Under the pieces are notes generated by a model that did no database searches, had not been told where the DNA came from, and saw only the letters and a program-made list of their open reading frames with translations. 64,000 bases of DNA. Source: an uncultured Alphaproteobacteria bacterium. Lineage in GTDB: Bacteria; Pseudomonadota; Alphaproteobacteria; Rhizobiales; Xanthobacteraceae. This document shows positions 1,010 through 48,779 of this stretch, piece after piece. The position numbers and the translations under genes were made by a program. The first letter of the stretch is position 1. Every line of letters starts with the position of its first letter. Location of the stretch: NCBI GenBank assembly GCA_963755055.1, contig CAVWIS010000004.1, positions 125,478-189,477 of the forward strand, given 5' to 3'.

Positions 1010-1738
1010 ATGAGCGAGACCCAGCGGATCATCGAACGCCTCCACAGTCAGTTGGACCTGGCGGTCCGATTGCGGACCGGCGCCAAGGCCGATCCAGCGT
1101 CAGCCGAGAGACGCCAGAACCTGCGCGCCTGGCAGACCGTGCGGCTCGCCCGCACCCATGCGGATCTCCTGGCCAGCCCGCGGTTCGGACTGGCGGCGAC
1201 CTTCTTCCTGACCGAACTCTACAGTGCCAAGGACATCACCTCACGGGACGAGCAGGTTCGCAGCGTCGTCCCGGTGATGACCCGGCTGCTGCCGGCGTCT
1301 GCCCTGGAGACGGCGTCCGATGCCATCGAACTCGACGCGCTGTCGGAAGATCTCGACGCCGCCATGGTGACCGCCCTGGGGCCTCGGATCACCAGCATCG
1401 ACGCCGCCGCCTATGGTCGCGCCTATCGGCAGGTCGACCGTCGCGACGACCGCGAGCGGCAGCTCGAGCTCGTCCGCCATCTCGGGACATCGCTCGATCG
1501 CCTGGCGCATCAGCGTTTCTCCGGCATGATGCTTTCGCTCATGCGCACGCCGGCGCAGCTTGCCGGGCTGGGTGATCTGCAGGAATTCCTCGAGCGCGGC
1601 TACAAGGCCGTGCACAAGATGGGCAGCGCCGACGACTTCCTGGACCTGGTTGTCGGGCGCGAGCAGAGACTGCTCGAAGGTCTGCTCGCCGGCAGCGACA
1701 GCTTGCTCGAGGAAGGCCCGACGCCGCAGGCCGCCTGA
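1010..1738 (+). CDS. Hypothetical protein (conserved, about 242 aa)
   Basis: ORF 746..1738 trimmed to the internal ATG at 1010 (MSETQRIIERLHSQLDL...) so it does not overlap the WS/DGAT gene. Good GC3 coding bias; no recognisable motif. Confidence 0.5.
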   Translation: MSETQRIIERLHSQLDLAVRLRTGAKADPASAERRQNLRAWQTVRLARTHADLLASPRFGLAATFFLTELYSAKDITSRDEQVRSVVPVMTRLLPASALETASDAIELDALSEDLDAAMVTALGPRITSIDAAAYGRAYRQVDRRDDRERQLELVRHLGTSLDRLAHQRFSGMMLSLMRTPAQLAGLGDLQEFLERGYKAVHKMGSADDFLDLVVGREQRLLEGLLAGSDSLLEEGPTPQAA

Positions 1739-8384: not shown

Positions 8385-9572
8385 CTACAAGATCGTGTTC
8401 GTCCGGATGTCTCTGGGCGCATTGGTCAGCGTCTCGGGTTTCTGGCCGATCACCACGGAATTGTCGATGCGAAAGCCGCCGAGGCCGTAGACGTAGATGC
8501 CGGGCTCGACGGAAAACACCTCGCCCTTCAGCAGCGGGCGGTAGCAGAACGGCATGTCGTCGGGATATTCGTGGCCCTGCACCCCCATGCCGTGGCCGGT
8601 GCGGTGCAAAATGTTCTCGCCGAATCCGGCCTTCTCGATCACCGCCTGGGCGGCTGCGTCGATCGCCGCCACCGGATTGCCGGCGACCGCCGCGATGGTG
8701 CCGGCCTCGTTGGCGGCGCGCGCCGCCTCGTAGAGCGCCGCCTGCTGGTTGGAGGGTTTTCCAACGAAGAAGGTGCGCTCGTTCTCGGTCATCATGCCGT
8801 TGAGGCGGACGTTGCAGATGTTGACGATGCCGTGGCCCTTCTCGATCGTCGCGCCGGTCGGCATGCCGTCACCGTGGGGCGAGGCCGAGGCCGGTCCGCT
8901 CAAGGTCATGCAGCGGATCTCCGCATTCTCGCCGGGAAGGCGCTTTGCCGCCTCCTCCGAGATCATCGCCGCGATGGAGAAATCGAGCTCCTGCAGGCGG
9001 CGACCCGGGCGGATATTTTCCAGATAGCGCTGCTGGCCCCAATCGGACAGCGACCCGGCGGCACGGTGGACGACCAATTCCTCCTCGCACTTGACGAAGC
9101 GCATCTCGCGCAGCGTCGACAGGCACGCCACCAGCTTGAGGTCGGGCAGCAGCGCCGCGACCCGCGCCAGCGGCCCGCCGGCGGCGTCGACCCCGATGGC
9201 TGAGCGCGCAAGGCCATGCTGCCGCAGCAGGTCGGCCACCATCTCGGCCCACTGGACGCGGACCGGCACCCGGTTGGTCGTGCGCGGATGCTCGCTCCAG
9301 ATGCTGACGTCGCTCACCCACATCACCCCGCGCTCGACGGTGCCGCGCACATGATTGGTGGAGAGCTCGTTCATCACGGCGAACGGCTCGCCGTCGCGCG
9401 GCATTACGACGACGATCGGCCGCTCCCACAGCTGGACGTCGACGTGGAAATTGGTCGCCCATTGGAAGAAGTCGCCGGTGAGGAAGGCCAGCGCGTCGAG
9501 CCGGTTCGCCTCCATGGTCTTGCGCATGATGTCGCGGCGGTAGTCGAAGGTCTTCTTGCTCAGAAACGCCAT
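8385..9572 (-). CDS. M24-family metallopeptidase (Xaa-Pro aminopeptidase / creatinase-like)
   Basis: MAFLSKKTFDYRRDIMRK...: creatinase-type N-domain plus pita-bread-fold C-terminus with HGMGVQGHE / SVEPGIY metal-ligand motifs. Confidence 0.8.
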   Translation of the reverse strand: MAFLSKKTFDYRRDIMRKTMEANRLDALAFLTGDFFQWATNFHVDVQLWERPIVVVMPRDGEPFAVMNELSTNHVRGTVERGVMWVSDVSIWSEHPRTTNRVPVRVQWAEMVADLLRQHGLARSAIGVDAAGGPLARVAALLPDLKLVACLSTLREMRFVKCEEELVVHRAAGSLSDWGQQRYLENIRPGRRLQELDFSIAAMISEEAAKRLPGENAEIRCMTLSGPASASPHGDGMPTGATIEKGHGIVNICNVRLNGMMTENERTFFVGKPSNQQAALYEAARAANEAGTIAAVAGNPVAAIDAAAQAVIEKAGFGENILHRTGHGMGVQGHEYPDDMPFCYRPLLKGEVFSVEPGIYVYGLGGFRIDNSVVIGQKPETLTNAPRDIRTNTIL

Positions 9573-9614
9573 CTTGGATTCCCTTCTTCTCGTATTGAAC
9601 ATTGAAACCTGCGG

Positions 9615-16446: not shown

Positions 16447-17573
16447 CTACCGGTCATCGCTCTCCGGCGCGGGCATCGGCTCGGCCGGCCGGGTCTCCAG
16501 CCCGTTGAGCCGCCGGAGCAGAGAGGACGCAATCTTGCCAACGCCGCAGCGCCTCTGGTTCGCCAGGACGACCACGCCCGTGCGGCTCGACGGTGCGAAC
16601 ATCATCATGCTCGAATAGCCGGGCATCAGGCCGTCCTTCCACACGATGGGAGTGCCGTCGCGCAGGTTCCGCATGTGCCATCCGAGCCCGACGCCGCCGC
16701 GCTGACCGGTCGCGAAGCGCATCTGGTGCAAGGCGGGCAGCAGCGAATCGAGCGGCGAGCCGGCTTCGCCGAGCTCGAATGCGAGATAGCGCATCATGTC
16801 GCGCAGGGTGGAACGCATGGCGCCCGAGCCGCCCACGAACGGGAAGCCCGGCGTGAACTCGGTGGCGCGCTGCCCGTTCTCCCGAAAACCCCAGGCGAGA
16901 CGCGCATGCCGGGCTCTCGACAGCTCGATCGCGGTATCCGGCATCCCCAGCGGTCCGGTGATCACCTGGGCGTAGAGCTCATCGAGCGAGGCGCGATGGG
17001 CACGCTCGAGGGCAAGGCCGAGAATGTTCATGCCGGCATTGGAATAGAGGTACTCGGCGCCGGGCGCGCGGGTCAGCCGATAGTCGGCGAGAGAGGCCCA
17101 GACGGCGCCGGGCAGGAGCCGCGGTCCGCGGATCGGCAGCTGGCGCGGCAGACCGGAGGTATGGTCGGCAAGATGCAGAAGCCGGATCGGCTGGCCCTGC
17201 CAGCTCGGAACCGGCAACGGGGCGAATTTTTCCAGCGCATCGTCGATGCGCATCCTGCCCCGCTGATCCGCCCAGGCGAGCAGCGTCGTGGTGAAGGTCT
17301 TGGTGATCGATCCGATCTCGAACTCGGTATCGGCGGTCGGCACGCCATGGTTGCCGGTCGTGCCGAAGAAGCGCGCGGCGACGGTCTGTTCCTGCTTGGC
17401 GCCGACCGCAAGCCCGATGCAGGACGAATTCTCGGCGACCGCCTGATCGATCCAGCGACCGAGCTCCTCGGCGGTCGGCTGCGCGCCGGCGGGCATCGCG
17501 CCGATGAGGACCGACAGGCCGAGCAGCAGAGCCGGGGCGCTGCCACAGGCCCTGACGCGGAGCCCGCACGTCA
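16447..17573 (-). CDS. Serine hydrolase, class C beta-lactamase / esterase family, secreted
   Basis: Signal peptide MTCGLRVRACGSAPALLLGLSVLIGAMPAGAQ; SxxK motif SITKTF; YSN-like motif (YLYSNAG). Confidence 0.75.
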
Positions 17574-17955
17574 TCGTCTTCCTCCGTGTCCTCCGAAAGC
17601 GCGACGACTTTCCTTCGACGCACACCCGGACCAAGCGGATTCGACAACATTGTGAGATGCGCCTCGGCAGGTCAACGTCTGGCGCCGCATCCGTCTCACC
17701 GTGGGCCTGCCGATTGGGCAGCCTGCCCGGCGGACCAGGCGCAACCTGAACCGGTTCGGCGACCAGGCGCCTGACTGCTCCGGCATTTCGCGCCGGACGG
17801 ACCGCTCCTTGATCCGTTGTAGATTCGTTGTTTCCGTAGGTTCGTTGTTATTCAACCTCACGAAGAAATTTTCGCCGCCGCACGTCCCCAGCTTGCCGGC
17901 AGCGCCTGCGCGGCCCGAGGATCACGCCTTGCTCCGTTGCAGATTTCGTTGTTTT

Positions 17956-18075
17956 TCTCATTGTTCTCATTGTTCTCATTGTTCTCATTGTTCTCATTGT
18001 TCTCATTGTTCTCATTGTTCTCATTGTTCTCGTTGTTCTCGTTGTTCTCTCTCGTTGTTCTCGTTGTTCTCTCTC
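17956..18075. repeat. Tandem 9-nt repeat array: (TCTCATTGT) x8, degenerating to TCTCGTTGT units
   Basis: Perfect periodicity read directly from the sequence. Preceded by two copies of a roughly 25-bp direct repeat CCTTG(A/C)TCCGTTG(T/C)AGATT(T)CGTTGTTT at about 17808 and 17927. Lies about 350 bp upstream of the GG-leader peptide gene. Confidence 0.9.
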
Positions 18076-18423
18076 CTTGCTGCGTTGTTCCAGGCGCGGC
18101 CCGCCCCGCAAGCGCGGCCTCCTTGCGATCGCGGCCCGTCCGGCCGCGCGCTCTCGCGCTTCATCGACAGCACGATCTCCCGGCTCTCTCGACGCGAAGT
18201 CACTTCCGTTTGAGTACCCTATTAAGGGTAATATGTCAAGCGGTAAAGTGGCATGTGAGTTTCCGGCTGGCGCCCCTTGTCTTCGGCCGAGTCTCGGCAA
18301 AATCGCCGTCCAGGCGGGAAATCGCAGCAATTGTGACGACCGCCACAAACCGCGCAGTGCCCGCAGCCGACCCACAGCTGAGTGCGCGGACTTCACCGCA
18401 CACCGAACCGAAGGAGCAGCAAC

Positions 18424-18612
18424 ATGACCAAACCCGAGATGATCCGCGAGCTGACCGCCGACGAGGCGCAGATGGTCGCGGGCGGCTCGATCTTTAGCGT
18501 ACTGAGCCGTTACGTGGCCGTGCATCAGTGGGTGAGCCCTCTCGACACGCACTCCCTGAACCCGCAGCCCCTGCCGCCCGGCCCCGAGGCCGTCCGGCAG
18601 ATCATGGTCTGA
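18424..18612 (+). CDS. Small protein with double-glycine leader (62 aa): MTKPEMIRELTADEAQMVAGG | SIFSVLSRYVAVHQWVSPLDTHSLNPQPLPPGPEAVRQIMV
   Basis: Strong RBS AAGGAG 7 nt upstream of the ATG. The leader ends in the ELxxxExxxVxGG consensus of GG-type bacteriocin/RiPP leaders. The core has no Cys and is rich in aromatics and Pro. Confidence 0.6.
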   Translation: MTKPEMIRELTADEAQMVAGGSIFSVLSRYVAVHQWVSPLDTHSLNPQPLPPGPEAVRQIMV

Positions 18613-18790
18613 GCCGGGCGCGCGACCCGACCACATCAACAGGAGGGCGACGCCGGGTAACACCGGCGCCGCTTCTGGCGTTGCCTCGAGAACGTCGACA
18701 CCGTCCACGACCGGGCGTGCTTCACCAGGTTCGGGGCGGTTTCCGTCCGCTCCCGAAGGTGATGAACTGTGTCACGAAGTGAGCTGACGC

Positions 18791-19579
18791 CTATTTCTCG
18801 ACCTCGAACCCGGCCGCCGCATAAGCCTGCCTCGCCTCGGTGCCGGCCAGCGCCTGCAGGAATGCCTGGGCCGCCGCCTCATCGAGGGGACGCGCGCCCA
18901 GCACCGCCGAATAGGGCAGCGGGACCTGCAGCTCCTTCGGCAACGGCCCCACCAGCTTCGCCCCCGGGTGGCCGGCGATCTCGACCAGAACGCTCAGCGC
19001 AATCACGGTTCCGGGGCTCGTGTCCATTGCCAGCGTGGTCACGTTGGTACCCGCGGCCACGACCTGCGACTTGGCCTTGACCTCATCGGCCACGCCCAGG
19101 CGCTCGGCGAGGCGCAGCAGGAGCTGGCCCGAGGGCGTGACCTTGGGATCGTTGTAGATCACCTTGCTGGCTCCCAGCAGCGCCGCCCGCAGCGCGTCGG
19201 CGGTAGAAATGTCCGGGGCGGGGTCGCCGCTCCGCGTCGCCAGGCCGAAGCCCGTGGTGGCGAGCGGAACGCGACCGCGGCGGACCAGACCCTTGTCCTC
19301 GACCTCGGCCAGCGCGCCGTCGGTGAGAACGACCACGTCGGCATGCCGGCCGGCCTGCAGGGCCGCCACGATCTCGCCGGGGGCCGCCACGGTCATCTTG
19401 ACCGTGTGGCCGGAGCGCTTCTCGAAGGCAGCGGCCACCTCGGCGACGGCGCCGCGCAGGGCGACGGACACCGGGACCTGCAGCTCGGACGCCTGAGTCA
19501 CGGGCATCGCGCCCAGGAGCGACCCCGACAGAAATGCTGCCACCCGCAATGCCCGCCCGGCGCGCGATCGATGCATCAT
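18791..19579 (-). CDS. Periplasmic substrate-binding protein, ModA-like (molybdate/tungstate/sulfate-binding fold)
   Basis: Signal peptide, then ...VKMTVAAPGEIVAALQAGRHADVVVLTDGALAEVEDKGLV..: type-II periplasmic binding protein, ModA family pattern. Confidence 0.6.
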   Translation of the reverse strand: MMHRSRAGRALRVAAFLSGSLLGAMPVTQASELQVPVSVALRGAVAEVAAAFEKRSGHTVKMTVAAPGEIVAALQAGRHADVVVLTDGALAEVEDKGLVRRGRVPLATTGFGLATRSGDPAPDISTADALRAALLGASKVIYNDPKVTPSGQLLLRLAERLGVADEVKAKSQVVAAGTNVTTLAMDTSPGTVIALSVLVEIAGHPGAKLVGPLPKELQVPLPYSAVLGARPLDEAAAQAFLQALAGTEARQAYAAAGFEVEK

Positions 19580-22880: not shown

Positions 22881-24647
22881 TTACCTCGCCGGGATGATCG
22901 GCAGGAGCAGGTAGGACCCGCGCGGGCCCCCGGTGTGAAGCGTTACCTTCCCGCCGAACACGTCCGGCGGCCGGTTGTCGGGATCGCTGTGGGTCATGCC
23001 GCCCGTGCCGCGGGTCGCATAATGGAATTTCTTGCCGAACTCGGACAGCTCGCCCTCGTACTCGTAGTCCTTGCCGCGTACCGTGAGCGCGACCTGCCAG
23101 CCCGCCGGCACCACGATTGAGCTCGTCACGATCTCCACATCGCATTCGGCGACCTCGCCCGGCGTCAGCGGCTCGACCCGGTCATGCGGGTGGTAGGGCC
23201 GGTAAGGTGTGCTCCGGCTCGGGTCGAGCCGGCGGTGCGAGACGCGCAGCCAGCCGTTGGCGATGGGCGTGTTGGGATCGGTCGAGCCCATGAAGGTGAG
23301 CTCCTTGCCTTGCGGGTCGAGCACGCGGACGATCAGGAAGAGGTCGGCGTCCCTGGTGGCGGACGAGACGAACAGTTTTGCCGCCATCGGCCCGGTGATC
23401 TCGGTGGCGTGCGCCATCGGCGCCATCCGGAACGTCAAGCCGTTGCCGAGCGCTTCGTACTCGATCTTCCCCTCCCGGGCGACGGGCTCGGGGCTGAGCG
23501 TCATGCCGGCGGGATCGAGGTAGAATTTCGTCCACTGCGTGCGGGCGAGCGGCCATTCGTTCTCGTGCCGCAGCACGAACTTCTCCCCGGGATGGCGGAC
23601 GTTGAGGGTCACCGGCGAGGTCTTCTCCCAGCCGTTGTCGATGCCCTTCAGGAAGTGATCGAAGAAGCGCTTCTGCAGCACCACCCCATAGCCGGAGGAG
23701 AACAGCGACCAGTGCGACTCGCCATGGACCTCGAGCCACTTCTGCTTCGACGCCGCCTCCATGAAGCCGTTGAAGTTGCCGCGCGGGTGGATGCCCTGAC
23801 CGCCCCAGTTGGCGCACGACAGCAGCGGCACTTCCACCTTGGAGAGGTCGGCGGAGCGCTGGCGGTGCCAGGCGTCATCGAGAGGGTGCTGCTTGGTCGC
23901 CTCGTAGGGATTGATGCGGTTGCGGGCGAGCTCCTCCGCGGAGAGCGTGACGGGGCCCGCCACCGACTCGCCGGTGTTGGGGTTCTTCTTCGCCCGCTCG
24001 CCCTGCCCGTACTGAATGTTGGCGACCTGGTGCTTTGCCCAGAGCTCCTGAAACTGGTTGAGGATGCCGCCGTGATACCCGAAATCGCGGTAGGCGTCAT
24101 TGAACCCTTCCCAGGGAATGATGGCGGCGAGGTGCGGCGGGTGCTTCGTCGCTACGGACCATTGGTTGATGGCATAGTACGAGATGCCGAGCATGCCGAC
24201 CTTGCCGTTGCTCCATGGCTGGGTGCCGGCCCACTCGATGCACTGATAGAGATCCTCGGTCTCGCGCGGAGATTGGGTATCCATCAGGTCGGGCGACCAG
24301 CCGGCGCCGCGCGAGTCGACACGGATCACGACGTAGCCGTGCGGGACCCAGCGCTCGGGATCGGTGACCTCCCAGTTCTGGTACTTGTTGGTCGAGCCAT
24401 CGAGGATCTCCGGATGATCCTCGACCATCTTGTTCCACTGGTGCGGATAGCCCTCCTGGTACGAAAGACCCTTGGCGTACACTCCGTAGGTGAGGATGAC
24501 CGGATAGCGGCCGTCCTCGATCGGACGGAAGACGTCGGCGCGCAGCACGAGGCCGTCGTCCATCGCGATCGGCTGGTGCCACGTGATCCGCATGCCGTCC
24601 CGCACCTCGGTGCGTGCCTCGACCTCGGCACTTCGAGCCAATGGCAT
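22881..24647 (-). CDS. CocE/NonD-family alpha/beta hydrolase (X-Pro dipeptidyl-peptidase S15-like), copy 1
   Basis: ...VILTYGVYAKG...VRVDSRGAGWS...: S15/CocE fold. Roughly 90 percent identical to the next gene. Confidence 0.75.
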   Translation of the reverse strand: MPLARSAEVEARTEVRDGMRITWHQPIAMDDGLVLRADVFRPIEDGRYPVILTYGVYAKGLSYQEGYPHQWNKMVEDHPEILDGSTNKYQNWEVTDPERWVPHGYVVIRVDSRGAGWSPDLMDTQSPRETEDLYQCIEWAGTQPWSNGKVGMLGISYYAINQWSVATKHPPHLAAIIPWEGFNDAYRDFGYHGGILNQFQELWAKHQVANIQYGQGERAKKNPNTGESVAGPVTLSAEELARNRINPYEATKQHPLDDAWHRQRSADLSKVEVPLLSCANWGGQGIHPRGNFNGFMEAASKQKWLEVHGESHWSLFSSGYGVVLQKRFFDHFLKGIDNGWEKTSPVTLNVRHPGEKFVLRHENEWPLARTQWTKFYLDPAGMTLSPEPVAREGKIEYEALGNGLTFRMAPMAHATEITGPMAAKLFVSSATRDADLFLIVRVLDPQGKELTFMGSTDPNTPIANGWLRVSHRRLDPSRSTPYRPYHPHDRVEPLTPGEVAECDVEIVTSSIVVPAGWQVALTVRGKDYEYEGELSEFGKKFHYATRGTGGMTHSDPDNRPPDVFGGKVTLHTGGPRGSYLLLPIIPAR

Positions 24648-24702
24648 TTGCTCCTCCTCACCTCAAAGGGATCGACACTGTGCTTTGTCGAAGCCGGTAT
24701 GC

Positions 24703-26463
24703 CTATTTCGCCGGGATGATCGGCAGGAGCAGGCAGGACCCGCGCGGACCCCCGGTGTGAAGCGTTACCTTCCCGCCGAACACGTCCGGCGGCCGGTTGT
24801 CGGGATCGCTGTGGGTCATGCCGCCCGTGCCGCGGGTCGCGTAATGGAATTTCTTGCCGAACTCGGACAGCTCGCCCTCGTACTCGTAGTCCTTGCCGCG
24901 TACCGTGAGCGCGACCTGCCAGCCCGCCGGCACCACGATTGAGCTCGTCACGATCTCCACATCGCATTCGGCGACCTCGCCCGGCGTCAGCGGCTCGACC
25001 CGGTCATGCGGGTGGAAGGGCCGGTAGGGTGTGCTCCGGCTCGGGTCGAGCCGGCGGTGCGAGACGCGCAGCCAGCCGTTGGCGATGGGCGTGTTGGGAT
25101 CGGTCGAGCCCATGAAGGTGAGCTCCTTGCCTTGCGGGTCGAGCACGCGGACGATCAGGAAGAGGTCGGCATCCCTGGTGGCGGACGAGACGAACAGTTT
25201 TGCCGCCATCGGCCCGGTGATCTCGGTGGCGTGCGCCATCGGCGCCATCCGGAACGTCAAGCCGTTGCCGAGCGCTTCGTACTCGATCTTCCCCTCCCGG
25301 GCGACGGGCTCGGGGCTGAGCGTCATGCCGGCAGGGTCGAGGTAGAATTTCGTCCACTGCGTGCGGGCGAGCGGCCATTCGTTCTCGTGCCGCAGCACGA
25401 ACTTCTCCCCGGGATGGCGGACGTTGAGGGTCACCGGCGGGGTCTTCTCCCAGCCGTTGTCGATGCCCTTCAGGAAGTGATCGAAGAAGCGCTTCTGCAG
25501 CGCCACGCCATAGCCGGAGGAGAACAGCGACCAGTGCGAGTCGCCGTGGACCTCGAGCCACTTCTGCTTCGACGGCGGCTCCATGAAGCCGTTGAAGTTG
25601 CCGCGCGGGTGGATGCCCTGACCGCCCCAGTTGGCGCAGGTCAACAGCGGCACTTCGACCTTGGAGAGGTCGGCGGAGTGCTCGCGGTGCCAATCGTCGA
25701 AGAGCGGATGCGCCTTCAATTGATCATAGACGTTGATGCGGTTCCTGGCGAGTTCGTCTTCGGAGAGCGTGACTGGCCCGGCCACCGACTCGCCGGTGTT
25801 GCGATTCCTCTTCGCCCGCTCGCCCAGTCCGTACTGGATGTTGGCGACCTGGTGCTTCCACCACAGCGCCTGAAACCCGCTGAGGATGCCGCCGTGGTAG
25901 CCGGAATCGCGATAGCGGTCGTTTTGCCCCTCCCAGGGAATGATGGCGGCGAGATGCGGCGGGTGCTTGGCGGCGACGCGCCACTGATTGCTCGCATAAT
26001 ACGAGATCCCGAGCATGCCGACCTTGCCGTTGCTCCATGGCCGGGTCCCGGCCCACTCGATGCACTGGTAGAGATCTTCGATCTCACGGGTGGAGTTCGG
26101 GTCCATGACCCCGGGCGACCAGCCGGCGCCGCGCGAGTCGACGCGGACCACGACGTAGCCGTGCGGGACCCAGCGCTCGGGATCGGTGACCTCCCAGTTC
26201 TGGTACTTGTTGGTCGACCCTTCGAGGATCTCCGGATGGTCCTCGACCATCTTGCTCCACTGGTGCGGATAGCCCTCCTGGTACGAAAGGCCCTTGGCAT
26301 ACACGCCGTAGGTGAGGATGACCGGATAGCGGCCGTCCTCGATCGGAGCAAAGACGTCGGCGCGCAGCACGAGACCGTCGTCCATCGCGATCGGCTGATG
26401 CCACGTGATCCGCATGCCGTCGCGCACCTCGGTGCGTGCCTCGACCTCGGACGATCGATCCAT
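24703..26463 (-). CDS. CocE/NonD-family alpha/beta hydrolase, copy 2 (tandem paralog)
   Basis: MDRSSEVEARTEVRDGMRITWHQPIAMDDGLVLRADVF..., near-identical to copy 1, including the 3' flank. Confidence 0.75.
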   Translation of the reverse strand: MDRSSEVEARTEVRDGMRITWHQPIAMDDGLVLRADVFAPIEDGRYPVILTYGVYAKGLSYQEGYPHQWSKMVEDHPEILEGSTNKYQNWEVTDPERWVPHGYVVVRVDSRGAGWSPGVMDPNSTREIEDLYQCIEWAGTRPWSNGKVGMLGISYYASNQWRVAAKHPPHLAAIIPWEGQNDRYRDSGYHGGILSGFQALWWKHQVANIQYGLGERAKRNRNTGESVAGPVTLSEDELARNRINVYDQLKAHPLFDDWHREHSADLSKVEVPLLTCANWGGQGIHPRGNFNGFMEPPSKQKWLEVHGDSHWSLFSSGYGVALQKRFFDHFLKGIDNGWEKTPPVTLNVRHPGEKFVLRHENEWPLARTQWTKFYLDPAGMTLSPEPVAREGKIEYEALGNGLTFRMAPMAHATEITGPMAAKLFVSSATRDADLFLIVRVLDPQGKELTFMGSTDPNTPIANGWLRVSHRRLDPSRSTPYRPFHPHDRVEPLTPGEVAECDVEIVTSSIVVPAGWQVALTVRGKDYEYEGELSEFGKKFHYATRGTGGMTHSDPDNRPPDVFGGKVTLHTGGPRGSCLLLPIIPAK

Positions 26464-26641
26464 GAACGTCCCTCCCTGATATATTCGCGTCCCCGCGTCG
26501 CGACGGACGTTAGAGCATTTTCGGGAAAAGCGGACACCGCTTTTCCGCAATGCCACCATGCATCGCGCCGCGTTATCTGGATTCAATCCAATCTGGCTTT
26601 CAGGTGAGCCAATCCGTGCATCATTTGGTGCTGCATTCGCC

Positions 26642-26665
26642 GCGCATTGACATTTCGCAATGCGC
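26642..26665. promoter_or_regulatory. Perfect palindrome GCGCATTG-N8-CAATGCGC in a divergent promoter region (candidate operator)
   Basis: Read directly from the sequence. Lies between the divergent CocE/NonD copy 2 and the MFS transporter, next to an unusually AT-rich stretch (26680-26717). Confidence 0.35.
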
Positions 26666-26792
26666 GGAGCGACTACGACATGAATGAGATATGATGAGAT
26701 AAAATCCAGAATAGAGGCTGACGGGCCGTTTTCGGCGGGGGTCGAGCGGCCGTGACCAGCCCGTCTTCAATCAATGAACTCGGGGGGAAACC

Positions 26793-34988: not shown

Positions 34989-36176
34989 ATGTCGATTGAC
35001 GACCCGGAGCGTCCTGTTTTCCCAAGTCAGCCGATCTCGCAGCTCCTCATCAAGGTAGCTTCGCGCTGCAATATCGACTGCTCCTATTGCTACTGGTTCC
35101 GCGACGCCGCGGTTTACGACAAGCCCAAGCTGATGAGCGGCGAAGTGCTGCAGCAACTGCTGCGGCGCATCGAGGAGCACATCGTCAAGTACTCGATTGC
35201 TGAATTTCCCCTGATCCTGCACGGCGGCGAGCCGCTGCTGTGGGGGGTCGATAATTTTTGCCGGATTGCCGAGGCCTGCGAGGCCATGGCGGCGCGGACC
35301 AGCTGCGAGATCCCCATTGCGGTGACCACCAACGGCATCCTGATCGACGAGACCTGGCTGGACTGCTTCGAGACCCACGGCATCACGGTCGCCATCAGTC
35401 TCGATGGGCCGGCGCATATTCACGACATTCATCGCCGCACCTTCCAGGGCACAGGCACGCACGCCGCCGTCGAGCGCGCCGCCCGCATGCTGGCATCGCG
35501 CGACATCAATGTGAGCGCACTGGCGGTCTGCAATCCGGCGCATCCGCCGAAGGAATACGTCGATTTCTTCGCCGGGTGTGGAATTCCGAGCTACGACATC
35601 ATGATTCCGGACGCGACAGTGGGCGAGAACCCGCCGCCTATCGCCGCGTTCTACAAGGGCCTGTTCGACCTGTGGCTGGAGGCGAACCGCCGCGAGCGGA
35701 CCGTCGACATCCGCATCGTCACCGACATGGTCGGCGCGCTGCTCGGCAACGACGCGCCGACCGAGGGCGTCGGCTACAAGCCGATCGAGCTCTGCACCGT
35801 GATGACCGACGGCTCGCTGGAAGCCCATGATGTCCTGCGCATCGCCGGCGACGGCGTGACGCAGACGACCTTCAACATTTTCGACCATGCGATCGACGAC
35901 GTGAGGAACGAGCCGCGCTGGAAAGCGGCACGGGAGGCTTCGATCGATCTGTGCGAAAAGTGCCGGCAGTGCAAATTCATGAATGCCTGCGGCGGCGGCT
36001 ATCTTCCTCACCGCTTCTCCAAGGAGAACGGCTACGACAATCCCTCGGTCTATTGCGACGACCTTTACGCGACGTTCGAGCACATCCAGTCGGTGCTCGA
36101 GAGCCATGTCTATGTCGCCAGGCCGGACGGAGAGCGGCTCAAGGTGAGCGACGAGCTCGCGCGCACCGCCGGTTGA
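34989..36176 (+). CDS. Radical SAM / SPASM-domain protein (anSME-like peptide-modifying maturase)
   Basis: CxxxCxxC motif CNIDCSYCYWF at residues 27-34. Cys-rich C-terminal SPASM/twitch region (...ELCTVM..., DLCEKCRQCKFMNACGGGY..., VYCDD). Confidence 0.8.
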   Translation: MSIDDPERPVFPSQPISQLLIKVASRCNIDCSYCYWFRDAAVYDKPKLMSGEVLQQLLRRIEEHIVKYSIAEFPLILHGGEPLLWGVDNFCRIAEACEAMAARTSCEIPIAVTTNGILIDETWLDCFETHGITVAISLDGPAHIHDIHRRTFQGTGTHAAVERAARMLASRDINVSALAVCNPAHPPKEYVDFFAGCGIPSYDIMIPDATVGENPPPIAAFYKGLFDLWLEANRRERTVDIRIVTDMVGALLGNDAPTEGVGYKPIELCTVMTDGSLEAHDVLRIAGDGVTQTTFNIFDHAIDDVRNEPRWKAAREASIDLCEKCRQCKFMNACGGGYLPHRFSKENGYDNPSVYCDDLYATFEHIQSVLESHVYVARPDGERLKVSDELARTAG

Positions 36177-37422: not shown

Positions 37423-37567
37423 TGGGCAAAATCCGTCGCAAGCGCAGACGCGGGCGCAGGCCGTGCGCGGATTTTGCCCACGCGGTCACACCGGCGTGGT
37501 ACCGCGTGGGCAAATCGCCGGCACCCCATCAGCAAATATCACCCGTCGTGCCCGGCGATTTGCCCAC
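37423..37567. repeat. Two hairpin elements after the beta-propeller gene and upstream of peptide gene 2
   Basis: Hairpin A: GGGCAAAATCCG-N30-CGGATTTTGCCC (37424-37480). Hairpin B: GTGGGCAAATCGCCGGCAC-N23-GTGCCCGGCGATTTGCCCAC (37506-37567). B is near-identical to the element at 37983-38044. Confidence 0.75.
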
Positions 37568-37758
37568 CCTACTCGCGGCGCGCGCCCACTTCCGTTCCTG
37601 ACCAACGTCGGGTAAGGTAGGAAACGCCTGACCGCCCGTCGGCATGCACGGCCGCCGGCGATGCGAACCCGATTGGCTGTCGACCAAGTGCAGCCGATTC
37701 CCGCCGGCCCGAGTAGGCAGGAATCCCTGGAGAGGAGAGCAGACGGCCATGACCACGC

Positions 37759-37931
37759 GAACCGACGCGACGAACGACAGCGAGCCGCGCCCGCTCGACG
37801 AGACAGAGCTCAGGGCCGTAAGCGGCGGCGACAAAGCTTCGGATCAGCAGAGCATGATGCAGATCATGTCGAACATCATTCGCTCGATCCAGGATGCGCA
37901 AAAGAGCATCGTCAACAATATCCGCGGATAA
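37759..37931 (+). CDS. Small protein with double-glycine leader (57 aa): MTTRTDATNDSEPRPLDETELRAVSGG | DKASDQQSMMQIMSNIIRSIQDAQKSIVNNIRG
   Basis: RBS GGAGAGGAG about 8 nt upstream of the ATG. LDETELRAVSGG matches the class-II microcin/bacteriocin GG-leader consensus. The core is a Cys-free amphipathic helix. Confidence 0.6.
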
Positions 37932-37982
37932 TGCGGCGACCGGCGGCGGGAGCCACACCGGCGCCGGACCGCGTGGGCAAAT

Positions 37983-38044
37983 CGCCGGCACGGTAGCACC
38001 AAATATCACTCGCCGTGCCCGGCGATTTGCCCACCCTACGATCG
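37983..38044. repeat. Third copy of the palindromic element, 50 bp after the peptide-2 stop (terminator-like)
   Basis: GTGGGCAAATCGCCGGCAC-N23-GTGCCCGGCGATTTGCCCACCCTAC; the loop shares CAAATATCAC with copy B. Confidence 0.75.
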
Positions 38045-38055
38045 CCGAATACCGG

Positions 38056-40266
38056 CTACTTCCCTTCCAGCGTGAAGACCGGCTCCCAATCCGGCCCGGG
38101 CGGGTGGATGACAAGCACCTTCGCCCGCTTCAGGAGCAGCGCGGCCGGCGGGTCCTCCGCGGCGGTCCGTTCGAGGCATTTTGCCGCGCCGGCGAAGTCG
38201 CGCGCGCGCCAGCAGGCGAGGCCCTCGGCATAGATCGCCGCATGGGCCGACTGCTCCGGCGTCTGCCGGCCGGATTCGGCGAGCAACTCGTGGATGGTGA
38301 CGGGCTGGGCCCGGCCCATGACCTTGATCGCCTCGAGCTCGCGCCAGGCGAACGTCGTCCCGGTCAGCGCCACCGTCGCCTGCGATGCCATGATCGACGT
38401 CGCGAAATACTTGTTGGCCCCTTCGAGCCGCGAGGCGAGGTTCACCGCATCGCCGAGCGAGGTGTAGTTGAAGCGGCGCAGCGAGCCGATATTGCCCACC
38501 AGCACCTCGCCCGAGTGCAGCCCGATCCGGTGGCCGATCGCCAGACCCTGGAATTCCGCAACGGTGCGGTTGAGCTCCTCGAGGCGGGCATTGCAGGTGA
38601 GCGCCGCGCGAACCGCATTGCGGGCATGGTCGGGATCGTCCACCGGCGCGCCGAATATCGCCTTGATCGTGTCGCCGACATATTTGTCGATGTAGCCGCC
38701 GTTGTCCTCGATGATGTCGGTCATCGCCGACAGGTAGGTGTTCAGCACGGTCACCAGCGTGCCCGGCGGCATCTTTTCGGCGAACGAGGAAAAACCGGCG
38801 ATATCCGAGAAGAACATCGTGACCTGGCGGACCTCGCCGCCGAGCGCCGGCAGCTTGTTCGCCGTCATCATCCGGTCGATGACCTCGTCCGCCAGGTAGA
38901 GCGCAAAGCTCTTGCGCAGAAACCGCTCCTCCCGGTCGGCGACAGCGAAGCGATACGCGGTGATCGCAACGATGGCGGCGAGCCCCGCCAGGAACGGCTC
39001 CACCAGGGGCAATGCGACAGAATGCGTGAAGGCGAAGGTCGCAGCCGCGGTGCATGCCGCGAAGAACCCCAAATAGGCGCCCGCCGCCCAGGCAGGCGTC
39101 AGCGCCAGCGCCGTCACCGAGGCCAATCCGGCGAACAGGATGGCGATCGCCGCGGAGGCCACCACCCCGGGCTCCGCGACGGTATCGTGACGGACGAGAT
39201 TGTTGACGGCAGTGGCGTGAACGTAGACGCCGGAGATCGATGCCCGCCGCGCCGCCGCCAGGGCCGGCGCCTCGGGCAGCGCGCAGCGCGGAGCCGCGGC
39301 GTGCTCGGGGCCGGTCGCCAGCCGCTTCGAGGTGACCTTGCGGTCCTCGATGTCGAGCAGGGTGCCGACGAGCACGATCTTGCCGCCGAAATGGCGGCGA
39401 AAGAACTCCTTGTCGTCCTTCTCTACGCAGGCGCGCAGATCGGCGAATGAAAAGGTCAGGATATCCTCGGCGCCGCCGTCGAAATTGAGCGTGACGGTGT
39501 TGGCGATCGCGCTCGGAAACCGGCGCCCGGCAAGCGTCAACGTTTCGTCGGGCGAAAACTCGGGAGCGACCCCGAGCGCCCGGGAGGCAAGCTCGACCGC
39601 CATGGACGGCGTGCGCCTGCCCCCGCCGGAAAAGGCCAGCGGCAGGCGGCGCACCACGCCGTCCGGATCGATGTAGACGTTCAGCGGACGGATGTTTCTC
39701 TGCTGACCGACGGCGATCCGCTGCGCCGGGGATGGCCGGACAGGCCGGTCGCGGTCCTCGATCTCGCCGAGCACGACGTTGCCGGAGCGGGCGCCGGCGG
39801 CAAGCGCCCGGAGAAAATCGCGGTCGAAGCCGCGCACGCGCGCGCCCAAGAGGTCGCCGTCGAACGGCATCTCCGATTGCTCGAGCGAGGCGGTAAAAAT
39901 GACGTCGAAGCCGACCACCCTGGCGCCGCCCTCGAGCATTGCGGTGAGCACGCGGCCGATCTCGCGCGTCCAGGTGATGCTCGGCGAGCCTTTGAACGGC
40001 GGGCGCTGGTAGCTCTCCTCGTCGATTGCCACCACCACGACCGGGGCCGATGCGGGGTCATGGCGGGCGCCGAACGCCTGCCAGCGCAGCATCGTGAGCA
40101 GGTCGATCGACAGGCCGTGCAGGATTCCAAGTGCCGGCGACGCGAAGAGCGCGCCGGATGCGAGCGCGATCACGATGACGGCGAGAACGTCGCGTCTGGA
40201 CAGTCGCCGGCGCCGTACGGGCGAGCGACGCGGCAAAGCCCTATTCCAGGCGCAGCAGACGGCCAA
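38056..40266 (-). CDS. CHASE2 sensor-domain adenylate/guanylate cyclase
   Basis: N-terminal TM, a CHASE2-like periplasmic region, a multi-TM segment, then a class-III cyclase domain (...TMFFSDIAGFSSFAE..., ...LHSGEVLVGNIGS...RFNYTSLGDAVNLASRLEG). Start uncertain (the ORF-track start is TTG). Confidence 0.75.
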   Translation of the reverse strand: MAVCCAWNRALPRRSPVRRRRLSRRDVLAVIVIALASGALFASPALGILHGLSIDLLTMLRWQAFGARHDPASAPVVVVAIDEESYQRPPFKGSPSITWTREIGRVLTAMLEGGARVVGFDVIFTASLEQSEMPFDGDLLGARVRGFDRDFLRALAAGARSGNVVLGEIEDRDRPVRPSPAQRIAVGQQRNIRPLNVYIDPDGVVRRLPLAFSGGGRRTPSMAVELASRALGVAPEFSPDETLTLAGRRFPSAIANTVTLNFDGGAEDILTFSFADLRACVEKDDKEFFRRHFGGKIVLVGTLLDIEDRKVTSKRLATGPEHAAAPRCALPEAPALAAARRASISGVYVHATAVNNLVRHDTVAEPGVVASAAIAILFAGLASVTALALTPAWAAGAYLGFFAACTAAATFAFTHSVALPLVEPFLAGLAAIVAITAYRFAVADREERFLRKSFALYLADEVIDRMMTANKLPALGGEVRQVTMFFSDIAGFSSFAEKMPPGTLVTVLNTYLSAMTDIIEDNGGYIDKYVGDTIKAIFGAPVDDPDHARNAVRAALTCNARLEELNRTVAEFQGLAIGHRIGLHSGEVLVGNIGSLRRFNYTSLGDAVNLASRLEGANKYFATSIMASQATVALTGTTFAWRELEAIKVMGRAQPVTIHELLAESGRQTPEQSAHAAIYAEGLACWRARDFAGAAKCLERTAAEDPPAALLLKRAKVLVIHPPGPDWEPVFTLEGK

Positions 40267-46981: not shown

Positions 46982-48779
46982 ATGACCGATCCATCGAGAT
47001 CACGGAAGTCGCAAGAACTAGCGCTGCCGGTCGCGCTGGCGCTCGCTCGCTCGGCGGCGAGCCGCGGCGCCGGCCGAGACGCGAGAAGCCGCAGTACGGC
47101 GGCGCGCTCGAGATCGGCACGGTCTACGTGACGCTGTCGGCGCTGTCGTGGGACCCGGCCGACTGGAACTGGAAGCTCAACCACGACACCGGCCTGTTCT
47201 ACGAGCAGCTGTTCGCCGCCGACCTCGCCAAGAGCGAAGCGCAAGGGCGGCAAGCACACCGTTCTACGCCGACGCCTGGCTGCCGTCCGACGCGATCCGC
47301 GGCGAGCTGGCCGAGAGCTGGGAGTGGAAGGAGAACCCGCTGCGCGTCGAGGTGCAAGCTGCGCAAGGGCGTGATGTTCCCCGAGAAGCCCGGCGTCATG
47401 GAGGCGCGCGAGCTCACCGCCGACGACGTGGTGTTCAGCTTCAACCGGCTCGACCAGAGCCCGAAGAAGATCGCCGGGCTACTTCGACCACGTCGACAAG
47501 GTCGAGGCGACCGACAAGCACACGGTCGTCTTCACCTTCAAGGACTACAACGCCGAGTGGGACTACCGCTTCGGCTGGGGCTACTACTCGGCCATCATGC
47601 CCAAGGAGGTGGTCGACGCCGGCGCCGGCCAACTGGAAGAACGTCAACGGCACCGGGCCGTTCAGCTGACCGACTTCGTGCAGGGCAACTCCAACACCTA
47701 CACCAAGAACCCGATCTACTGGGACAAGGAGAAGATCGGCGGCGACGAGTACAAGCTGCCCTTCGTCGACAAGATCGTCTACCGCACCATCAAGGACGAG
47801 GCGACCTTCGTCACGGCGCTGCGCACCGGCAAGCTCGACATGCTGGAGGCGATCCGCTGGCAGCACGTCGACAGCTGAAGAAGAGCGCGCCGCAGCTCAA
47901 GTGGACGCGCTGGCTGTCAATGTCGGGCACGTTCCTCGCGCATGCGCGTCGACACCAAGCCGTTCGACGACATCCGCGTGCGCCGCGCGCTGAACATGGC
48001 GGTCAACAAGCAGGAGATCGTCAAGGCCTACTACAGCGGCAACGCCGAGCTGTTCGCCTATCCGCAGCATCCCGACTATATCGGCTACTTCGAGCCGCTC
48101 GACACGATGCCGGCATCGGTGAAGGAGCTGTTCACCTACGACCCCGCCAAGGCCAAGAAGCTGCTGGCCGAGGCCGGCTACCCCAAGGGCTTCACCTTCA
48201 AGGTCCAGGTCTGCTCGTGCAGCCCCGACCACATGGACCTGCTGCCGCTGGTGGCCGCCTATCTCGAGCAGGTCGGCGTCAAGATCGAGATCCAGCCGAT
48301 GGAGTACGGCGCCTTCCTCTCGGCGATGACCACGCGGACCAACGCGCCCGGCTACTTCATGAACAACGGCCACACCAACCCGACCACCACGCATCCGCAA
48401 GAGCTTCGTCACCGGGCCAGGTGTGGAACCCGTCGCAGTGGTCACGACCCGAGATACGACAAGAAGATGGCGCGAGGTCTATCGCGAGCGCGACGAGGAG
48501 CAAGCGCCAGGCGATGATCCGGCGAGATGACGCGCGAGATCCTCGACAAGGCGCCGTACATCTGGCTGCCCACGCCCTACATCTACACCGCCTGGTGGCC
48601 GTGGGTGAAGAACTACGGCGGCGAGCTGCGCGCCGGCGCGGTGCGCCCCGGCCCGATCTACGCGCGCATCTGGGTCGACCAGGAGCTGAAGAAGAAGATG
48701 GGATTACTGAGCAGCTGCACCGGTCGCACCGCCGACGTGGCCGCACGCCTCTGCTCGAGGTCCGCAACCTGACCACGCG

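Follow-up and report, generated by a model that had tools for sequence, protein, structure and literature searches.

A predicted double-glycine-leader peptide with a conserved LNPQPLPP core, and a nine-nucleotide minisatellite upstream of its gene, in an uncultured alphaproteobacterium

Do a small peptide gene and the tandem repeat array that precedes it belong together? The question is raised by an intergenic region of 850 nt in an uncultured member of the Xanthobacteraceae (GenBank assembly GCA_963755055.1, contig CAVWIS010000004.1), which holds both a 9-nt repeat array and an open reading frame (ORF) for a 62-residue peptide. The region was analysed within a 64,000-nt stretch of that contig (positions 125,478 to 189,477), called the window below and used for all coordinates. 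It had been predicted from the letters alone that the ORF encodes a precursor with a double-glycine (GG) leader like that of a second small peptide in the window (peptide 2), that the core might be a substrate of a radical S-adenosylmethionine (rSAM) enzyme encoded between the two, and that the array might serve as a set of regulator-binding sites or as a phase-variable switch. The reading that we favour, and consider moderately probable, is that two unrelated things share this region, namely a stand-alone GG-leader peptide gene and a minisatellite.

Judged from its sequence, the ORF is a genuine gene, given its G+C content at third codon positions (GC3) of 0.89, which is typical of genes in this genome of 67% GC, its good ribosome-binding site and the large family of relatives described below. 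Its translation is exactly as first quoted. The GAAGGAG element lies 7 nt before the ATG (Table 1), and a purine-rich AAGGA or AGGGG block occupies the equivalent position in other family loci. The gene is flanked by a divergent AmpH/class-C-beta-lactamase-like gene (16447-17574, minus strand) and by a convergent SBP_bac_11 gene (18791-19579, minus strand). The peptide contains no Cys and few Ser or Thr residues. Its AlphaFold2 model, calculated from a 48-sequence alignment, is of low confidence (pLDDT 65, pTM 0.22), too low for a fold search.

What kind of peptide does this gene encode? A word-indexed search of 5.8 billion proteins retrieved only the peptide itself and an ortholog of 89% identity from a soil metagenome. 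An exhaustive phmmer search of 1.84 billion representatives yielded 33 relatives at E<=1e-3, and the profile built from them found 845 proteins at the same threshold, nearly all of 55-70 residues and all unnamed. No model in Pfam or NCBIfam matches the peptide, the PDB sequences hold no relative of it beyond a leader-level resemblance, and a full-text literature search for the peptide and its motif gave no match; across these sources, the core shows no sequence similarity to any described family of bacteriocins, microcins or peptides made on the ribosome and modified after translation (RiPPs). Two scans of GTDB species representatives, one with the ampH-like neighbour and one with the peptide alignment, returned no relatives, a result that speaks only to close orthologs given the very specific patterns employed, and a tblastn search of 72,556 plasmids with two family members as queries found no match. 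On these sequence comparisons, the peptide is a member of a new, large and undescribed family within a known kind, that of the double-glycine-leader peptides.

In the alignments, the family core reads Y-Y-A-A-V-x-x-[WFY]-V-S-P-L-D-x-x-[AS]-L-N-P-Q-P-L-P-P, followed by a short variable tail, and a second subfamily has G-G-I-I-I-V-S-G-L-Q-R-Q-F-T-S-x-L-D-R-V-A-L-N-P-Q-P-L-P-P. Residues N46, P47, Q48, P49, P51 and P52 are invariant in 48 aligned sequences, and the window copy keeps all six. A second, longer leader, with AGG at its end, precedes the same LNPQPLPP core at L013, L020 and L039, and the presence of the core behind two leader types is as expected for a leader/core architecture.

The motif [AS]LNPQPLPP[GKR] was seen in other proteins as well. 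It occurs once at the end of proteins of about 95 residues, which have a different, longer N-terminal region ending in AGG, and in tandem, in three to eight copies, in larger proteins, several of which have signal peptides (P0004, P0017, P0059, P0106); one protein with the motif carries RTX repeats (P0008). Extra occurrences were recorded in P0004, P0014, P0017, P0020, P0059, P0086, P0104, P0106 and P0129 and at loci L013, L014, L020 and L039, and none of the larger or ~95-residue proteins has a family assignment. The tandem copies in proteins with classical signal peptides place the function of the motif outside the cytoplasm.

The family leader has the consensus ..R-E-L-T-x-x-E-L-x-x-V-A-G-G. 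Among 90 short family members, the GG pair is present in at least 73, while position -4 is V in 76, position -7 L in 58, position -8 E in 80 and position -12 L or M in 74 of 87; in some members the cleavage site reads AG, GA, GS or SA. The leader of the window peptide (V-4, A-7, E-8, L-12 and I-15) agrees with the rule of hydrophobic positions combined with an acidic residue at -8. The prediction of a GG-type leader was thus borne out, on a real gene and at positions that are conserved across the 90 relatives, and the alignment of homologous small ORFs, which had been proposed as a check, showed leader and core both to be conserved. The best PDB matches of the leader profile were the C-terminal end of a Nif11-type leader (ELSDSELEAVAGG, E = 0.3) and CtA (RELTDEELMEMTGG, E = 1), which amount to a pattern-level resemblance that is not significant; CtA is the substrate of the peptidase-containing ATP-binding cassette (ABC) transporter PCAT1. 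Removal of the 21-residue leader after Gly-Gly (Gly21) would be the work of an ABC exporter with a C39 peptidase, the gene for which would lie in another part of the genome, and a Cys-free peptide of about 41 residues, with a hydrophobic helix and a proline-rich stretch, would be released outside the cell. There it might act as a bacteriocin-like or signalling peptide, the invariant LNPQPLPP being recognised by a partner.

How might such a gene be controlled? Alignment of the upstream regions revealed a palindrome common to all loci. A TGTGA-N6-TCACA box precedes the gene in 26 of 26 non-redundant family loci, with 10 of its 10 positions matched in 3 loci, 9 in 20 and 8 in 3, and it is centred 70-106 nt upstream of the ATG. 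Conserved half-sites around a freely varying N6 spacer, as found here, are the mark of a site bound by a protein and not of an RNA stem. Elsewhere in the 301 kb of fetched DNA there are only 13 comparable sites, and the window has no such site near a small ORF other than this one. TGTGA-N6-TCACA is the classical consensus of the cyclic AMP receptor protein (CRP), and in E. coli the class II site is centred at -41.5. We take the box for the probable site at which an activator of the Crp/Fnr family binds. A regulator of this cyclic-nucleotide type, bound at about -41.5, would activate a weak promoter, and a box centred about 84 nt from the ATG would fit a class II arrangement with a 5' untranslated region (UTR) of about 40 nt. 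In many loci, a weak -10-like element is found 20-27 nt downstream of the box. A hairpin in the 5' UTR (Table 1) is a weak candidate: a GC-rich hairpin occurs at the equivalent position in other family loci, with double changes in 3 of 5 predicted pairs and a consensus energy of -0.36 kcal/mol.

The box is not confined to the LNPQPLPP peptides, as at least 3 of the 13 background sites lie upstream of further GG-leader mini-ORFs whose cores are unrelated (L011:5499, L010:14838 and L030, minus strand). These mini-ORFs, which have the CRP-family box at a similar distance, lie at L011:5367-5669, L010:14734-15008 and L030:~1290-1550 (minus strand), and examples of peptides with a TGTGA-N6-TCACA box contain MTTETMKREDLSVIELSDADLDCATGG, VRELTETELQVAAGG and RELSANELDTVVGG. 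Two further mini-ORFs of this sort, at L006:12016-12281 and L008:14145-14384, have a Clr-like palindrome instead, TGTT-N8-AACA (TGTCACCCAGGGAACA and TGTTACCTGGGGAACA). These cases suggest that regulators of the CRP family are linked with GG-leader peptides more widely in these soil bacteria.

The surroundings of the gene were compared between the window and nine other family loci, on contigs of up to 355 kb and with flanks of 6-10 kb. The neighbours differ between contexts: a two-component kinase and a META-domain gene; a dCMP deaminase with a major facilitator superfamily transporter or a methyltransferase; a gene with indoleamine 2,3-dioxygenase (IDO) and cyclic-nucleotide-binding domains; a cluster of small ORFs with a 2-oxoglutarate/Fe(II) (2OG-Fe(II)) oxygenase; LysR and META genes; an RTX-like gene; and SnoaL/DUF4440 genes. 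The gene is an orphan that stands alone in ten contexts, and any processing machinery would act in trans. One of these arrangements is of interest given the CRP-type box, in that the family member P0034 is encoded directly downstream of the gene for the IDO and cyclic-nucleotide-binding domain protein (L010:8444-9871, and a contig of Logan accession ERR11592907); the two contigs are independent and represent one context type only. Peptidases of proline-specific type occur in the window itself, namely an M24 Xaa-Pro aminopeptidase (8385-9614) and two paralogous genes of the S15 X-Pro dipeptidyl-peptidase family (22881-24662 and 24703-26766); that they share it with a proline-rich peptide is probably a coincidence.

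Does the array belong to this architecture? Tandem Repeats Finder (TRF) placed it at 17955-18049 (period 9, 10.6 copies, 98% matches, score 176), with a degenerate continuation to 18090, and 0 matches to the run of perfect units are expected in shuffled sequences. Its GC content is 40%, against 67% for the genome. The array was correctly described as eight perfect copies followed by degenerate ones and lying upstream of the ORF: it ends 334 nt from the peptide ATG and 242 nt upstream of the CRP-type box, and its beginning is some 380 nt away from the start codon of the ampH-like gene. The proposed search for further copies was run over the 64-kb window and found none. Two direct repeats are indeed present, of 27 nt, 81% identical and with their starts exactly 120 nt apart; they had been said to precede the array, but this is true only of the first, the second running directly into it. 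They are read as the heads of a longer unit. In the window and in its closest relative alike (L002, a metagenome contig with the same flanking genes and 87% identity at four-fold degenerate sites) the first is followed by three degenerate 9-nt units, to ~17852 in the window, and TTCAAC. L002 keeps both heads and has, at the position of the array, only four TTYGTTGTT units, TTCGTTGTT TTTGTTGTT TTTGTTGTT CCTGTTGTT, so that the copy number is ~14 in the window and 4 in L002. In a near-identical strain (L001), the short-read assembly is interrupted right at the border of the perfect tract, a behaviour typical of de Bruijn assemblers. Heads and array are absent from 38 other loci, Rfam has no match in the intergenic region, and a consensus promoter and terminator scan of 17400-18800 called nothing.

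A module of about 120 nt, made of a 27-nt head, three or four 9-nt T/G-rich units and a tail, would have been tandemly duplicated before the window and L002 lineages split, and the tract of the second copy would then have expanded by replication slippage to ~14 units in the window lineage, with the eight identical units at the 5' side as evidence of the most recent slippage. In such a comparison, the array is an ordinary, lineage-specific minisatellite that lies outside the family architecture. Most likely it has no specific function, or at most it changes the spacing or the DNA topology between the two divergent genes. Its absence from the other family loci and its position, about 285 nt upstream of the promoter elements that the family conserves, argue against a role tied to the peptide.

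Table 1. Coordinates of the features discussed in the text, in window positions.
Feature	Position	Strand	Remarks
Direct repeat copy 1, GGACCGCTCCTTGATCCGTTGTAGATT	17799-17825		Head of duplicated unit 1; families D2, D10; in L002
Direct repeat copy 2, GGATCACGCCTTGCTCCGTTGCAGATT	17919-17945		Head of duplicated unit 2; in L002
9-nt minisatellite	17955-18090		TCTCATTGT in 8 perfect copies (17956-18027), followed by the variants TCTCGTTGT and TCTCTCTCGTTGT
47-nt block shared with L002	18202-18248		Palindrome TACCCT-ATTA-AGGGTA (TACCCTATTAAGGGTA), 18215-18230
CRP-type palindrome, TGTGACGACCGCCACA	18332-18347		9/10 versus TGTGA-N6-TCACA; centre 84 nt before ATG
Possible 5'-UTR hairpin, GTGCGCGG-ACTTCA-CCGCACAC	18382-18403	+	Just before ribosome-binding site
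Shine-Dalgarno GAAGGAG	18410-18416	+	7 nt before ATG; read from sequence
62-residue peptide gene	18424-18612 (stop included)	+	Read from sequence and ORF translation
Leader, MTKPEMIRELTADEAQMVAGG	18424-18486	+	21 residues, ends Gly-Gly
Predicted core, SIFSVLSRYVAVHQWVSPLDTHSLNPQPLPPGPEAVRQIMV	18487-18609	+	41 residues
rSAM/SPASM gene	34989-36176		Closest to cyclophane-forming YhhB and FxsB maturases
Peptide 2	37749-37931		GG-type

Several observations weigh against an exported peptide encoded beside an inert repeat. No Peptidase_C39 gene was found in the 64-kb window or in the nine other annotated contexts, and there is no Crp/Fnr-family gene in the window. The closest ortholog (L002:1578-1766) has AG for GG and NPQQLLS for the otherwise invariant NPQPLPP, and it differs from the window peptide by 7 non-synonymous as against 4 synonymous codon changes; selection may be relaxed on the copy of this clade, or the gene may be decaying in the L002 strain. 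As regards the repeats, the heads are ~95% conserved with L002, compared with 87% at four-fold degenerate sites, and they may thus have a function, in which case the spacing set by the array may have one also. Finally, the conservation of the core is very strong and unusual for bacteriocins, a property that would be explained no less well by enzymatic modification of the peptide or by its binding to a conserved partner.

This last point leads to the possibility that the peptide is a RiPP precursor, the core of which is modified by an enzyme encoded elsewhere, such as a 2OG-Fe(II) oxygenase that would hydroxylate Pro, Asn or Asp residues of LNPQPLPP. With its six invariant residues the core is far more conserved than those of unmodified bacteriocins, and it is attached to two types of leader. 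A PF13640 2OG-FeII_Oxy_3 gene is located ~600 nt downstream in L011 and in a second contig, within a cluster of GG-leader ORFs, and the prochlorosins, of which many precursor genes are scattered in the genome and depend on one enzyme and one exporter, offer a precedent for dispersed precursors served in trans. However, the nine other contexts have no modifying enzyme in common, the 2OG oxygenase being limited to one context type, and the peptide has no Cys and few Ser or Thr to offer. On balance, we consider a modified core rather unlikely.

For the array, the corresponding alternative is that array and heads are functional cis-elements, either iterated regulator sites, as the original prediction had proposed, or a phase-variable element that modulates the peptide gene or the ampH-like gene through its copy number. 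The heads carry CGTTGT hexamers 11-12 nt apart (TRF period 11 at 17811-17831) and might be binding sites for something; the arrangement CGTTGT-N5-CGTTGT has helical-turn spacing, like the sites of response regulators. The slightly above-neutral conservation of the heads points in the same direction, and the difference in copy number between relatives, together with the recent slippage implied by the identical units, would suit a modulator. In contrast, the 9-nt period is out of helical phase, and the array is remote from both the CRP-type box and the ampH-like start, with no recognisable -35 or -10 promoter elements around it. The unit sequence is not conserved either (TCTCATTGT versus TTTTGTTGT), and no such element is present at any other family locus. 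A regulatory role of the repeats is therefore unlikely, and an ordinary minisatellite remains the preferred reading.

Some further features of this intergenic region may be mentioned here. Three readings of the repeats were rejected: that of the second head as a sigma-54 site (GG-N10-GC), of which about one match is expected by chance in the region; that of the array as LexA sites (GTTC-N7-GTTC), as the spacing is N5; and that of a minus-strand transcript, for which nothing speaks at present, as an (ARN)n target of Hfq. The 47-nt block and its counterpart in L002 differ very little, although the DNA around them has diverged, and the block is absent from the other family loci; on its minus strand, a perfect TTGACA and TACTCA are separated by 17 nt, and the consensus scan called no promoter there. 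A segment of ~150 nt between the ampH-like start and the first head (17621-17770) is absent from L002, contains a 14-nt inverted repeat (17664-17677/17700-17713) and may be a small inserted element.

It has also to be considered that the N-terminal part is not cleaved at all, the 62-mer being an intracellular small regulatory protein, or that the gene is decaying in this lineage. The lack of an exporter gene in the 64-kb window would fit this, as would the replacement of GG by AG, GA, GS or SA in some members and, in the nearest ortholog, the AG site combined with the loss of PLPP. Yet positions -4, -7, -8 and -12 follow the double-glycine rule in most of the 90 members, LNPQPLPP is found in tandem in classical signal-peptide proteins, which puts its function outside the cytoplasm, and the window copy retains every invariant residue. 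Neither an uncleaved protein nor a decaying gene seems likely to us, and we continue to view the product as a probably exported GG-leader peptide.

Much less probable still is the proposal that the peptide is a substrate of the YhhB/FxsB-like rSAM/SPASM enzyme of the window, which would introduce three-residue cyclophane crosslinks. The best matches of the enzyme are cyclophane-forming maturases, it has no obvious precursor ORF adjoining it, and by position its gene does lie between two GG-type peptides, as stated originally; moreover, the 62-residue peptide has aromatic residues, of which Y30 and W36 (as W, F or Y) are conserved in the family, whereas the nearer peptide 2 has none. The scores of the enzyme are nevertheless below the curated cut-offs of both models (301.6 bits for NF041707, cut-off 445; 287.7 bits for TIGR04269, cut-off 370), and 16.4 kb with ~12 unrelated genes on both strands separate it from the peptide gene. 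No Radical_SAM gene was found within 6-10 kb of the family gene in the nine other contexts. The aromatic-x-x spacing noted at first is conserved in part only, F24 and H43 not being conserved, and the family is defined by LNPQPLPP, which contains no aromatic residue. We thus regard a cyclophane-type modification by this enzyme as highly improbable. Nor could the supposed match between the leaders of the two peptides be upheld: BLASTP gave no alignment between them at E<=100, what they share is the generic ..E..L....V.GG, and peptide 2 has no CRP-type box.

As to the surroundings of these two genes, the rSAM gene adjoins a low-GC stretch (~29.7-33.5 kb) with a DUF4238 gene and a 286-residue ORF that belongs to no family. 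Peptide 2 is bracketed by two palindromic copies, of ~66 nt, of an element resembling repetitive extragenic palindromes (37504-37569 and 37971-38036; GCGTGGGCAAATCGCCGG ... CCGGCGATTTGCCCACCC), with four arm matches where 0.18 are expected by chance. Right beside it is a gene for a CHASE2 adenylate/guanylate cyclase (38056-40266, minus strand). Elsewhere in the window, an SBP_bac_5 gene (47375-48517) is split by an in-frame TGA (47876-47878), and its halves correspond to successive segments of the Pfam profile; a pseudogene, a sequencing error or read-through may be the explanation.

That the array is itself coding, the frame TCT-CAT-TGT giving an HxsA-like (Ser-His-Cys)n protein from a TTG at 17929 behind GAGGA, can be dismissed, for although GAGGA-N7-TTG is conserved in L002, the 9-nt unit keeps the frame and NF038313 (HxsA4) gives a weak match to the repeat only (30.4 bits, E = 5e-7), this score falls short of the cut-off of 55 and reflects composition, the GC3 of the frame is 0.24-0.47 compared with 0.8-0.93 for real genes here, the same frame in L002 is a 20-codon ORF with no His-Xaa-Ser, Pfam finds nothing, and genes for HxsB, HxsC and HxsD are missing, the one rSAM protein scoring 67.7 bits against an HxsB cut-off of 370.

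What could a family of this kind signify? To our knowledge, double-glycine-leader peptides have barely been explored in Gram-negative soil bacteria, and here more than 800 members, with no database model or literature match, combine an unusually conserved proline-rich core with a uniform CRP-type site. We tentatively put forward, as a possibility that is still well short of probable, that the LNPQPLPP peptides and the other GG-leader mini-genes form an exported-peptide regulon under cyclic-nucleotide/CRP control in uncultivated soil Alphaproteobacteria, in which LNPQPLPP would be a portable recognition module for one extracytoplasmic partner, be it a receptor or a modifying enzyme. If this is true, the regulon would be a previously unrecognised system of peptide signalling or competition, and not one more bacteriocin. 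The family is in any case a concrete and easily testable entry point, with one box, one leader and one core motif. A false lead is removed as well, in that the peptide is not to be pursued as a substrate of the neighbouring cyclophane-type rSAM enzyme; nor, without experimental evidence, is the 9-mer array to be taken for an element of the regulation of the peptide.

The locus can finally be set beside the known systems that it resembles in part. Simple-sequence contingency loci switch genes by slippage, as does the TAAA tract upstream of Neisseria nadA, and usually have units of 1-7 nt. The array is like them a perfect tandem tract upstream of a gene, with a copy number that differs between relatives, but its unit is of 9 nt, it is far from recognisable promoter elements, and the sequence of the unit is not conserved. 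With the triceptides, which are made by rSAM/SPASM enzymes of the XyeB, GrrM, FxsB or YhhB type, the locus has in common the type of enzyme in the window and the aromatic residues of the peptide, whereas precursor and enzyme are neither adjacent here nor associated in other contexts, and repeated aromatic-x-x motifs do not appear to be conserved as such.

The prochlorosins resemble the locus in organization, as their precursor genes also stand alone, and several GG-leader ORFs with different cores are found per genome fragment here (L011, L010, L006). They differ in having hypervariable cores rich in Cys, Ser and Thr behind Nif11-type leaders of ~65 residues, whereas the core of the present family is conserved, Cys-free and proline-rich, and its leader is short. 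As in CRP class II promoters, the palindrome has a variable 6-nt spacer and lies at a distance compatible with a short 5' UTR. Here the consensus is that of E. coli CRP, while the hosts are Alphaproteobacteria-like soil bacteria, which have many Crp/Fnr paralogs of mostly unknown specificity; the best named relatives are metagenome-assembled genomes of Xanthobacteraceae, at 78-79% identity for an M24 peptidase.

The nearest comparison group is that of the GG-leader peptides, including class II microcins such as MccV, class II bacteriocins, CtA with PCAT1, and RiPPs with Nif11/NHLP-type leaders. In these systems as in this one, a small precursor (here 55-70 residues) starts with a leader of 15-25 residues that ends in Gly-Gly, and the hydrophobic positions at -4, -7, -12 and -15 with Glu at -8 form the pattern that matches the CtA and Nif11 leaders. 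Unlike them, the LNPQPLPP family has no adjacent C39-ABC transporter, immunity gene or maturase in ten contexts, and its core, where theirs is hypervariable, is highly conserved across more than 800 members.

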